From Eledone cirrhosa (taxonomy: Eukaryota), in contig CAXHJY010000461.1 of assembly GCA_964016885.1 (NCBI GenBank), forward strand, positions 1 through 64,000: DNA of 64,000 bases, written 5' to 3'. The notes beneath the pieces were generated by a model. It was not told where the DNA came from. It saw only the letters and a program-made list of their open reading frames with translations, and made no database searches. The translations under genes were made by a program, and so were the position numbers. Of the stretch, positions 18,402 to 36,445 are shown piece by piece (within the stretch, counting starts at the first letter, position 1; every line of letters begins with the position of its first letter).

Positions 18402-18522
18402 TAGAAAATATAAATTTAAGTAGATTTATCTTTTTGCTTTGACCGGGAACAATGACTACAATTTGTAGTCATTGTTCCTAATCAAAACAAAAAGATAAAT
18501 CTACTTAAATTTATATTTTCTA
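18402..18522. repeat. Fold-back palindrome, about 120 bp
   Basis: TAGAAAATATAAATTTAAGTAGATTTATCTTTTTG...CAAAAAGATAAATCTACTTAAATTTATATTTTCTA centred on GACTACAATTTGTAGTC. Confidence 0.9.
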
Positions 18523-25410: not shown

Positions 25411-27310
25411 CCTGGAGTTGCGTCCAATAGTACTAGCAACTGTAAAGAGCAACGGAAACATTGTTTCCTCAGTCGGATTTGACGAAAGTCGATCGATCCT
25501 TTTATATATATACATATATACACGCACACACATTATATATACATATACACACACTATATATACATATATACACTATATATACATATACACACACACTATA
25601 TATATACATACACACACACACACTATATATATATACACACACACAATCTATATATACATATACACACACAATATATACAGACACACACACACAATATTTA
25701 CAATACACACACACAATATACACACACACACAAATATAGATATTAGAATATTAGTTTAACACCATAGTAAAGTCATTAAAAAAATATATTTCATTATATA
25801 CTTTTCTATGAAATGTTTTACTAGTTAAGGAACACACACACACAATTTATATATATCTATGTGGCAAGAATGATAAAGGAAATAAAATTCTTTTAACTTA
25901 ATGTTTTTGTGGGTTTGTTAGTTTTTTTAACTTGGCAATAGATAAATAAAATTTAGTAAGAAAAAATTGTATTATAAAAATGTTCAATGGTGAGTAAAGT
26001 AATAGTGTTCTGATTTAGGCACAAGGCCAGCAATGGGGGGATTAAATTGACTACAGTACGTTACTGGTACTTTATTTTATTTTATCGACCCCGAGAGGTT
26101 GAAAGGCAAAGCTAACCTCGGCGGTATTTGAACTCATGACGTAAAAAGTCGTACCTAAATACCGTAAAGTAATATTAACTAGAGTTCGTTAATTAATCAA
26201 TGAGGGGTGGGGATGGCATGATGTCGCTAATTGGAACTTAAAAGAACAAACACTACCAAATATATAAATTAGGAAGGAATGCGATGAAAACCATATTTTA
26301 ATACTCTTTCACACACACACACATTTTGTCTCTTTCCAAACTCTCTGCCGTCCAATTTGCTTTTCATTCTTCTAGGATCGATAAGTACTGATCGAGTATG
26401 AGGGGGGTAGCTGTATATCATACCTCATTATTTGTGGCCTTTAAATATCAAATATTATTTCGGTAAATTGGATTTAACTAAACAAGCGAGACAAGATTTT
26501 TTTTTTGTATATGCGTATTTATTTATTTTTTGTTGTTGCTTAGCTCAAAATGTTCAATCTTATTTTCAGGTAAAATGTCACTGGATCTACATTATACAAT
26601 AGGATCTTCCTTTGATTTATATGCCTGAGGTACGAATTGAGGGAGACGTGACTGCTATTTCTAGTGTGTCGAGACGCGACCTAGAAACTCCTTCGACATG
26701 CTTTATATATCTATATATAAAATGCGTTGTTTATTTGTTATTCTACATGCTCATTATTTAGTGTGTCTTGGTGTGTAAAAATATACATTACAGATAAACG
26801 CTCATTAATTTCAAGGTTAACTTAGCTTTTCATCCTTACGGGGTCGATAAAATAAAGTACCAGTAATGTACTGTTAATTGCTGGCCTTGTGCCAAAAGTA
26901 GAAACAATTAATTTCAATACGACGTCGAAAGAAAAGGAGGAAAGATATAAACAAAACGGCACGTGTTTGAATAAAAACGATATATATTAATAAAACAATA
27001 CAATTAACAGGTATACATTTGTTAATGAGCGAAGTCGTATTTTTTCAATACAGAAATATATATAAATAAACAAATACCCTTATTTATTGTATGATAAATA
27101 TATATATATATATATATATCATACAATATATAAGGGTATTTATTTATTTATATATATTTCCGAAGAAGCTGATGATTAAATAGTCACTACTCGAATTTTC
27201 AAACTTTTTCAAGTTCGTAATAGGTGACAAATATATATACATATCCAAATATATATATATTAATTTCTCTATTTTCATTTATATATATATATATATATAT
27301 TTAGGAAAAT

Positions 27311-28916: not shown

Positions 28917-28964
<48 letters not shown>

Positions 28965-29076
28965 AATATGCAGAGGTTATATTTAATTTGCTGGGATACA
29001 ACAAGCTTTAAAATATTTTTATAACTGATATAAAGCACTCAACAAGTTAGTGGAGTAAATATACAATATATTGTAG

Positions 29077-29430
29077 ATGTCACGACAAAAAACACACAGT
29101 CCACGCTGTAAATGTGGCCGTGTAGGCAACACGGTAAAAACCTCCCAGCCCCACACTGTAAATGTGGTTGGTGTTAGGAAGGGCATCCAGCTGTAGAAAA
29201 CCCGCCAGACAGTCCACGCTGTAATGTGGCCGTGTAGGCAACACGGTAAAAACCTCCCAGCCCCACACTGTAAATGTGGTTGGTGTTAGGAAGGGCATCC
29301 AACTGTAGAAAACCCGCCAGACAGTCCTATGCGAGCAAGACAACCACTCTTGCCTCAAGTGGGAAAACCCCCGTCCAAACCCATGCAAGCGTGGAACACG
29401 GACGCTAAACCTGATGATGATGATGATGAT
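29077..29430 (+). mobile_element. RTE LINE 3'UTR fragment with internal tandem duplication
   Basis: Nearly identical to ~12480-12713, with a ~115-bp block duplicated. Confidence 0.88.
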
Positions 29431-29465
29431 TAACAAATGGAAACTATATTTATAAAACCATATTA

Positions 29466-29530
29466 ATTTTATTATACATATTTCAAGGGCCACCAAGGCA
29501 AATAATGGTGCGCTTTCATCAGATAAAATA
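29466..29530 (-). ncRNA. Type-I hammerhead ribozyme (mirror copy)
   Basis: Reverse complement of 29654-29719 with a few substitutions; core CTGATGA/GAAA intact. Confidence 0.8.
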
Positions 29531-29653
29531 CAATACAGATTAGTTTTATAAATAAATATTGACATACCCTGAAAAAATCCAGGAAGCTCCAACCGTTAAG
29601 GTTGTCTTTTTTCAGGGTATGTCAATATTTATTTATAAAACTAATCTGTATTG

Positions 29654-29719
29654 TATTTTATCTGATGAAAGCGCGCCATAATTTGCCTTGGTGGCCCTTG
29701 AAATATGTATAATAAAATA
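29654..29719 (+). ncRNA. Type-I hammerhead ribozyme
   Basis: TATTTTAT-CTGATGA-AAGCGCGCCA..TGGTGGCCCTT-GAAA-TATGTA-TA-ATAAAATA; 8-bp stem I. Confidence 0.8.
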
Positions 29720-29777
29720 AATATGGTTTTATAAATATAGTTTCCATTTGTTAATATATTGTATATGTATATATATA

Positions 29778-30126
29778 TTCATTTCATTTTCATTTCATTT
29801 CACTTTACGTCCGCTTTTCCCTGCTTGCAAGGGTGGGACGGGAACTGATTCTGGCTTGATTTCTACAGCTGGATGCCCTTCCTAACACCAACCTCATTTA
29901 CAGTGAGTGCTGGGTGCTTTTTTGCCGTGGCGCCTCCACGACCACTTTGCAGTGGAATGATATGGACCCCAGTCCCTATCATCTCATTTCTACAGCTGAT
30001 TAAACTGGAGCAATGTGAAATAAAGTGTCTTGCTCAAGGAAACAACACATCACCTGGTCTGAGAATTGAACTCACAACCTTTTGATTGCAAGGCCAATGC
30101 TCTAACCACTAAGCCATGTGTCTCCA
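29778..30126 (-). mobile_element. SINE family A
   Basis: Near-identical to 17893-18234. Confidence 0.88.
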
Positions 30127-36115: not shown

Positions 36116-36339
36116 ATATCACAGGAAAAAGAGAATCAGTGTTGCGACGAAAGGAATTTATTGGACATATTACAATTGTTTCTCGGGCGACCAGCTCGAG
36201 GCACGATCGATGTGGTGATCAAACCTGACTCTGAAATCACCACATCGATCGTGCCTTGAGTTGGTCGCCCGAGAAACAATTGTAATATGTCCAATAAATT
36301 CCTTTCGTCGCAACAATGATTCTCTTTTTTCTGTGATAT
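36116..36339. repeat. Fold-back element, ~104-bp arms, each with a hammerhead 3' half
   Basis: ATATCACAGGAAAAAGAG...GTGGTGAT / ATCACCAC...CTGTGATAT; GAAA-CAATTG-TA at 36273-36284 followed by AATAAA. Confidence 0.9.
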
Positions 36340-36350
36340 ATATATATATA

Positions 36351-36431
36351 TACAGGGTGTCCCAAAAATGTATACATACTTCAACAGCGATATAATCAAA
36401 GTGAGTATACATTTTTTAGGGACACCCTGTA
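36351..36431. mobile_element. Tiny Tc1/mariner-type MITE
   Basis: TA-CAGGGTGTCCCAAAAATGTATAC ... GTATACATTTTTTAGGGACACCCTG-TA; window positions 1-30 resemble the same TIR. Confidence 0.8.
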
Positions 36432-36445
36432 TGTGTATATATATA

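Follow-up and report, generated by a model that had tools for sequence, protein, structure and literature searches.

Background

Pairs of hammerhead ribozymes on opposite strands have been known since 2014, when Cervera and de la Pena (PMC4209133) described dual minimal hammerheads ~100-700 bp apart, derived from truncated PLEs; these ribozymes cleaved weakly, and in dimers only. An inverted 5'-truncated copy combined with a one-sided tail was described as typical of PLEs by Craig et al. 2021 (PMC8557442), who also list, for the Hydra clade, RW(K/R), DKT and YRDD motifs, a CxCx5C linker, CxxC and CxH motifs, and (TA)n targets. Recently, the Poseidon element of Anolis carolinensis has been studied by Frangieh et al. 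2024 (PMC11167929): its protein cuts both strands, reverse transcription starts at a pair of internal sites delimiting the tail, and insertion still takes place when the hammerhead is mutated. In D. virilis Penelope, the pLTR holds an internal promoter with a splice donor 46 nt past the start site (Schostak et al. 2008, PMC2377424).

Here we analyse a hairpin in the genome of Eledone cirrhosa, found in a window that comprises positions 1 to 64,000 of contig CAXHJY010000461.1 (assembly GCA_964016885.1). A preliminary description had presented it as a 325-bp hairpin element directly abutting an RTE (GAT)n tail, with two oppositely oriented hammerheads whose cleavage would compete with hairpin formation. 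The hairpin is, with high probability, a head-to-head pair of 5'-truncated pLTR copies of a Hydra-clade PLE lying in a (TA)n target, likely produced in one insertion event, in which the predicted dimer-type hammerheads are passengers. A distinct element or designed switch is not supported: inverted, 5'-truncated pLTR copies of this kind are the usual structure for a PLE.

Results

Structure of the inverted repeat

The inverted repeat is real: two 149-nt arms, 29429-29577 and 29607-29755, are 98% complementary, separated by a spacer of 29 nt and mismatched at three positions only (29675/29509, 29680/29504 and 29719/29465). The entire hairpin folds at -228 kcal/mol and, as first described, contains no ORF. 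The paired arms and two hammerheads of the proposed 325-bp element are thus present, but the insertion is larger, at about 28966-29766, with the left arm resuming at 28966-29072 past an RTE fragment.

Arm positions are given below as q, the coordinate on a natural tandem copy used as reference (L088:766-1300). Mapped to this copy, the right pLTR copy (29577-29766, + strand) covers q37 to about q226 and has the short (S) 3' end. The left copy, on the - strand, is in two parts. Its inner part, delimited by the inverted repeat and by mapping, is q67-215 (29577-29429), and its outer part is q213-316 (29072-28966), a 93% match to L088 that carries the ~90-nt tail leading to the long (L) 3' end; in copies without the interruption these two pieces are continuous. 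The 29-nt 'loop' at 29578-29606 is simply an extra 5' portion of the right arm, and is contiguous with it in family copies. TA runs stand at both outer ends of the insertion, namely a (TA)n microsatellite at 28931-28965 on the left, which would be the target, and a short TA-rich run at 29760-29779 on the right; (TA)n insertion is reported for Hydra PLEs in PMC8557442.

The piece that splits the left arm (29073-29428, + strand) is a 5'-truncated 3' UTR fragment of an RTE LINE with a (GAT)n tail and a 112-nt internal duplication, flanked by ATT on both sides (29070-29072 and 29429-29431). In two other loci (L063 and L064), homologs that are 94-96% identical to it sit downstream of what was read by eye as the end of an RTE-type ORF. 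The tail had been described as abutting the element; the RTE identity of the piece holds, but it is nested within the arm, and a link between the hairpin and the RTE is not supported. Most likely the fragment was inserted later than the PLE ends. We ruled out a SINE identity for this insert: upstream, its homologs lead into the end of an RTE-type ORF, and we found no tRNA head.

A full-length tRNA-headed SINE with a (TGAAA)n tail follows directly after the right arm (29790-30126, - strand); its tRNA-Ala-like head was scored at a relaxed threshold, and both body and tail resemble the RTE 3' UTR at a level of about 80%. Elsewhere in the window, small palindromes at 27066-27147, 18404-18520 and 36338-36444 are matched by generic miRNA models only. 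The first and last of these have TA flanks or a TA centre, and could be scars left by other insertions.

Ribozyme anatomy and folding

Each arm contains a complete minimal type I hammerhead (CUGANGA, GAAA and UH, with stems I and II). Both retain CUGAUGA (29662 on the + strand, 29522 on the - strand), a 31-nt stem II region, GAAA, a 6-nt near-palindrome and an AUA triplet; stem I is 8 bp on the + strand and 7 bp on the - strand. In the right copy (29654-29719, +), recognised from sequence, fold and variant comparison, stem I pairs 29654-29661 with 29712-29719, the core is 29662-29668, the stem II region 29669-29699, GAAA 29700-29703, palindromic stem III 29704-29709 and the AUA triplet 29709-29711. 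The left copy occupies 29465-29530 (-). Cuts are predicted after 29711 on the + strand and after 29473 on the - strand. The two hammerheads of the preliminary description, and the anatomy it gave them, were borne out in both arms, and the sequence anatomy agrees with its predicted cut site after 29711.

Folded by itself, the hammerhead reaches -6.5 kcal/mol with stem III open and -3.6 kcal/mol with stem III closed, a cost of 2.9 kcal/mol for closing it in the monomer. Stem III is palindromic and would allow dimer pairing; the intermolecular stem III duplex of the family is weak (-2.2 kcal/mol), and since the two hammerheads lie on opposite strands, no such dimer can form in cis. The sense-antisense duplex of the two ribozymes, by comparison, is worth -105 kcal/mol versus -6.5 for the hammerhead fold. 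Because the arms are head to head, the antisense copy would be made first in a transcript of either strand, and the sense hammerhead would be buried within a ~150-bp duplex. The original proposal that sense and antisense copies pair in read-through RNA is thus upheld, but geometry and energies point to a block of cleavage rather than a competition with it. Both the opposite orientation and this duplex make it likely that the ribozymes at this locus are inert.

A search of 29400-29800 against Rfam returned no hammerhead family even at E<=10, and gave only generic miRNA-hairpin matches, which we rejected as lying below their cut-offs; over the entire window, no hammerhead was among the matches listed (150 of 192). 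One more hammerhead-like motif of type I was seen at 60143-60090 (-); it belongs to a different family, with a short stem II and an 8-nt stem III region.

Hammerhead conservation in sister families

Covariation was assessed in 11 hand-picked hammerhead variants from sister families against 2000 shuffles; the variants are related, so that the shuffle counts are not probabilities. The base of stem II was paired in 31/33 cells (shuffle mean 24.6, with 0/2000 shuffles reaching 31), and stem III was self-complementary in 33/33 cells with four different 6-mers, a result matched by 38/2000 shuffles. Stem I, at 85/88, was equalled by 1035/2000 shuffles. Of the covarying stems named in the preliminary description, the stem II base is found to covary and stem III to remain self-complementary; stem I does no better than shuffled sequence. 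Stem II opens with A-U, and its 3-bp base is followed by a 1x1 loop, which is C-C in 8/11 variants. Since the core, the base of stem II and the palindrome of stem III are all conserved across sister families, the motif is under selection in this lineage.

The 3-10 kb flanks of loci L010-L091 happened to contain at least eight other hammerhead families. Many of them have the 3-bp stem II base and C-C loop in common, and several an ACTATCC word near their 5' ends.

Copy number and parent element

The arm is a young, high-copy repeat. The related copies anticipated in the preliminary description are abundant, with 12,633 exact genomic matches of the core 17-mer against 0 for the reversed control; together with the fold energy of the hairpin, these counts place the hairpin and its hammerheads far beyond chance. 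A search of the arm against its own genome gave at least 806 first-look candidates, 40 of which were scored and yielded 47 matches at 97-100%. Locus samples were the best-scoring matches, with 30 loci fetched per search, and so over-represent young copies. Among the first 100 core matches listed, a count by eye found 22 in head-to-head pairs, making 11 pairs within 300 bp with core-to-core spacings of 68-290 bp; the other 78 were without a close exact-match partner, and no close tail-to-tail or tandem pairs occurred among these 100.

The parent element was reached by walking upstream through longer arm copies, which run into a single ORF with RT plus, at its C terminus, a GIY-YIG domain. One locus, L138, holds a whole unit of about 3.8 kb, consisting of pLTR, a 743-aa ORF, a ~1.3-kb UTR and a second pLTR. 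Its translation includes RWR39, DKT122, a CxCx5C linker at 602, CxxC694 and CxH721, together with a C-terminal VKNIVY..YVG endonuclease; the YRDD motif is mutated in L138 and intact in L141 and L142. A CCHH motif was not seen in the endonuclease on reading this translation by eye. In L138, L139 and L140, and also in L077, L088, L094, L099, L101 and L102, a partially tandem pLTR precedes the ORF and the pLTR recurs behind it. The ORF starts about 190 nt past the hammerhead cut site. The N-terminal and RT blocks resemble Hydra-1_Obim, as compared by eye with the supplement of PMC8557442. Pfam assigned no family at E<=0.1 to three ORF fragments, so that the clade assignment rests on motifs and by-eye likeness rather than on a profile match or a tree. 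Judged in this way, the parent would be a PLE with a C-terminal EN belonging to the Hydra clade, and we hold the explanation of which this forms part with strong confidence. In L038, the segment between the S and L ends (q189-318 region) is tandemly amplified about seven times.

3' ends and pair geometry

The 3' ends of arms fall at two sites ~90 nt apart, S (about q225) and L (about q316). Among 131 arm ends at >=85% identity, a set that includes duplicated loci, 89 lie exactly at q229 (37) or q318 (52), and 14 others are ORF read-throughs. Each site is closely followed by one unit of an imperfect twin repeat that lies before the ORF start. These units fold only weakly (about -4 kcal/mol in 4/4 folds), so that a hairpin at this place was not shown for the family.

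The first samples, after four duplicate loci were dropped, held 23 close back-to-back pairs. Eighteen of these, the locus under study included, were S+L, four were L+ORF and one was unclassifiable; neither S+S nor L+L occurred among the 23. All 18 pairs with two classifiable pLTR ends were therefore S+L (p=8e-6). In a second sample, anchored on L arms and comprising 26 loci after removal of 4 duplicates, the partner was S in 13/13 classifiable cases, 2 partners were unclassifiable, and 11/26 arms had no partner. Overall, 31/31 classifiable pairs were S+L, each an inverted 5'-truncated copy with the tail at one end only, as is typical of PLEs.

The central junctions differ among the 23 pairs. 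They show 0-7 nt of microhomology or a few filler bases, some having no overlap at all, and many fall on short palindromic or microhomologous words. The S arm reaches further 5' than the L arm in several pairs, with the reverse in others. Across 21 pairs, 43% of minor alleles were common to the two arms of a pair versus 9% for random arms; at the locus under study, 0/3 minor alleles are common to both arms. A rare G at 29675, present in 4/101 arms, occurs on one arm of the pair only, both here and in L002; either a CpG-related change or an A-to-G edit that became fixed could account for it.

5' ends and a putative intron

The 5' ends of arms are concentrated at q30-41, which accounts for 16/29 arms; the hazard of a 5' end in this interval is 16/23 versus 9/65 in neighbouring 12-nt bins (p=1.4e-6). 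In the second sample, 11/26 arms have their 5' end at q33-40. Genome-wide, the 17-mer at q38-54 has 1,720 exact matches and that at q8-24 has 257, counts that are confounded by subfamily differences, since the q38-54 word is itself outnumbered 7 times by the core 17-mer, which lies another 80 nt along. In 28 loci holding both regions, q38-54 was exact in 20 and q8-24 in 27, the second figure being inflated by anchoring. The hotspot falls on a word, with its A at q34, that we take to be initiator-like; this A would correspond to 29574 and is missing from the copy at the locus under study. A second cluster of 5' ends, at q271-280, was seen in inverted L-type stumps (L012, L016, L020, L027, L028, L042, L099 and L102).

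A splice-donor-like GTATGT (29617-29622, +), the start of a putative 5' UTR intron, lies 43 nt downstream of the hotspot. Several diverged sister copies keep it at a similar distance from the hammerhead although their upstream sequence differs. On the 3' side of the putative intron, sister families lack the branch-like word, and L072 and L021 no longer have the acceptor-like AG. When the genome was searched for spliced copies, 4 matches were returned versus 8 for the reversed control, none of the 4 being element-derived, which is compatible with intron retention or with no intron. Contigs of four runs of unknown kind were also compared with L088:766-1300, and none of the joints listed (15 of 16) matches the putative intron; contig depth in these runs cannot rank the parts, and the contigs were not used as evidence. 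Nor did we use a search of RNA runs probed with an ORF-internal stretch of L102 (not the pLTR), for which no run was listed. Given the weak acceptor side and the failure to find a spliced genomic copy, we treat both the promoter and the intron as hypotheses.

Discussion

From what was observed, namely the family of the arms and its abundance, the pattern of arm ends and the nesting of the RTE fragment, a pathway for the formation of the hairpin can be proposed. The GIY-YIG domain would cut both strands of a TA run, and the RT would prime a cDNA from each of the two target strands, starting at S of the pLTR RNA for one and at L for the other. This two-primer step is inferred from the end geometry, by analogy with the Anolis PLE. 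Both cDNAs would stop early, often at the likely transcript start (the RNA 5' end), and would then be joined back to back through microhomology or filler bases; the RTE fragment would likely have inserted afterwards. The S+L pairing and the clustering of 5' ends suggest run-off at the transcript start by two cDNAs primed at two internal sites. A more specific version of this pathway, which we put forward tentatively and consider somewhat doubtful, is that the hairpins are frozen 'strong-stop' PLE products, opposite-strand cDNAs from two start sites in the leader that ran off at the transcription start, with the hammerhead inside a spliceosomal intron of that leader. Splicing would then take the hammerhead out of the mRNA, and unspliced RNA alone would be the template. 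In a search that covered titles and the starts of abstracts, with few subscription papers among them, no paper on twin priming or strong-stop in Penelope was found.

The closest competitor to two-strand priming, though an unlikely one, is fold-back self-priming of a single cDNA or antisense template, as for rotifer Penelope; self-priming has been proposed for head-to-head PLE junctions (Arkhipova 2013, PMC3846280), and both the palindromic or microhomologous words at many junctions and the minor alleles common to paired arms would be in keeping with it. A simple fold-back, however, would end both arms at one site or at random, and instead one S and one L end were observed in every classifiable pair. 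Further, the arm that reaches further 5' is S in some pairs and L in others, and some junctions have no overlap or have filler bases. Another reading makes the hairpin an element in its own right, a non-autonomous MITE-like or fold-back retrozyme whose antisense arm regulates the ribozyme and which moves as a unit, perhaps by means of the RTE. Pairs are indeed common among the core matches, and the RTE tail touches the hairpin; yet with the junction changing across the 23 pairs and core spacing from 68 to 290 bp, no fixed unit is copied. In addition, 78 of the first 100 core matches listed stand without a close exact-match partner, the arms are PLE pLTR sequence, and the left arm is interrupted by the RTE piece, with a 3-nt repeat. 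This idea is already largely refuted, and we give it very little credence. A MITE or fold-back DNA element was likewise rejected as a class, both junctions and arm lengths varying among pairs.

A further reading gives a role to the ribozyme itself, in which the hammerhead cuts element RNA in cells and the cut defines the start of the short copies. Conservation of the motif across sister families and the weak in vitro cleavage of dimeric PLE hammerheads (PMC4209133) would fit such a role. Nevertheless, both arms at the locus hold a whole, uncut ribozyme. In the sample anchored 3' of the cut, 0/26 arms begin within 10 nt of it (q171/172), the nearest being at q158 and q159, and a single partner arm of 15 begins near it (q168, 83% match). 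For the Anolis PLE, moreover, uncut RNA is the main insertion substrate (PMC11167929). We therefore regard this role as improbable.

As a single feature, the locus is of little importance. It is one of roughly a thousand or more pairs, a rough figure obtained by scaling 11 per 100 core matches to 12,633. As a natural experiment on how PLEs integrate, the family is of modest value: the S+L rule and the sharp 5'-end hotspot lead to testable predictions for two-strand priming and for promoter position. If the run-off reading is true, the hotspot would locate, from DNA alone, the promoter of a PLE clade that is unstudied, and strong-stop products would account for the many-fold excess of pLTR stumps over ORF copies. 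Additionally, double-stranded RNA could arise in this genome from the numerous near-perfect hairpins.

Comparison with known systems

The hammerheads here share with the minimal hammerheads of PMC4209133 their type I topology, a long helix II, a short palindromic helix III predicted to be dimeric, a location in pLTRs, and their occurrence mostly as single dispersed copies. They differ in stem I, which is 8 bp here versus 4-5 there, and in stem II, which opens with A-U and has a 3-bp base and 1x1 loop, whereas G10.1-C11.1 is usual in the 2014 set.

The coding motifs listed above, the (TA)n targets, the inverted truncated copy, the tail at one end and a hammerhead in the 3' region are all held in common with the Hydra clade, for example Hydra-1_Obim, as described in PMC8557442. 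The hammerhead motif, however, is different from that of Hydra-1_oBim, which makes this a separate family, and the 13-nt core string of the hammerhead was not found in the excerpts of the supplement consulted. The unit is also longer, at about 3.8 kb with a ~1.3-kb 3' UTR versus <3 kb in that paper, as is the tail (about 90 nt versus 30-40 bp).

Poseidon resembles the present system in its AT-rich targets and its two internal RT start sites, the latter inferred here. The ORF begins inside the hammerhead in Poseidon, and about 190 nt past the cut site in the Eledone family; the strict S+L rule and the 5'-end hotspot found here are not described for Poseidon in the parts of PMC11167929 consulted. 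With D. virilis Penelope (PMC2377424) the likeness concerns spacing, the donor-like site lying 43 nt past the 5'-end hotspot here versus 46 nt past the start in Penelope. The Penelope intron ends at hammerhead helix I, whereas in the present family the putative intron would enclose the entire hammerhead.

Finally, the animal non-LTR retrozymes (bioRxiv 10.64898/2026.07.22.740005) are, like this hairpin, non-coding, PLE-derived and equipped with a type I hammerhead. Membership in this group was ruled out by the head-to-head pairing and by the lack of close same-strand neighbours among the first 100 core matches listed: retrozymes consist of units in head-to-tail tandem, every one with its own ribozyme, whereas the structure here is a head-to-head pair.
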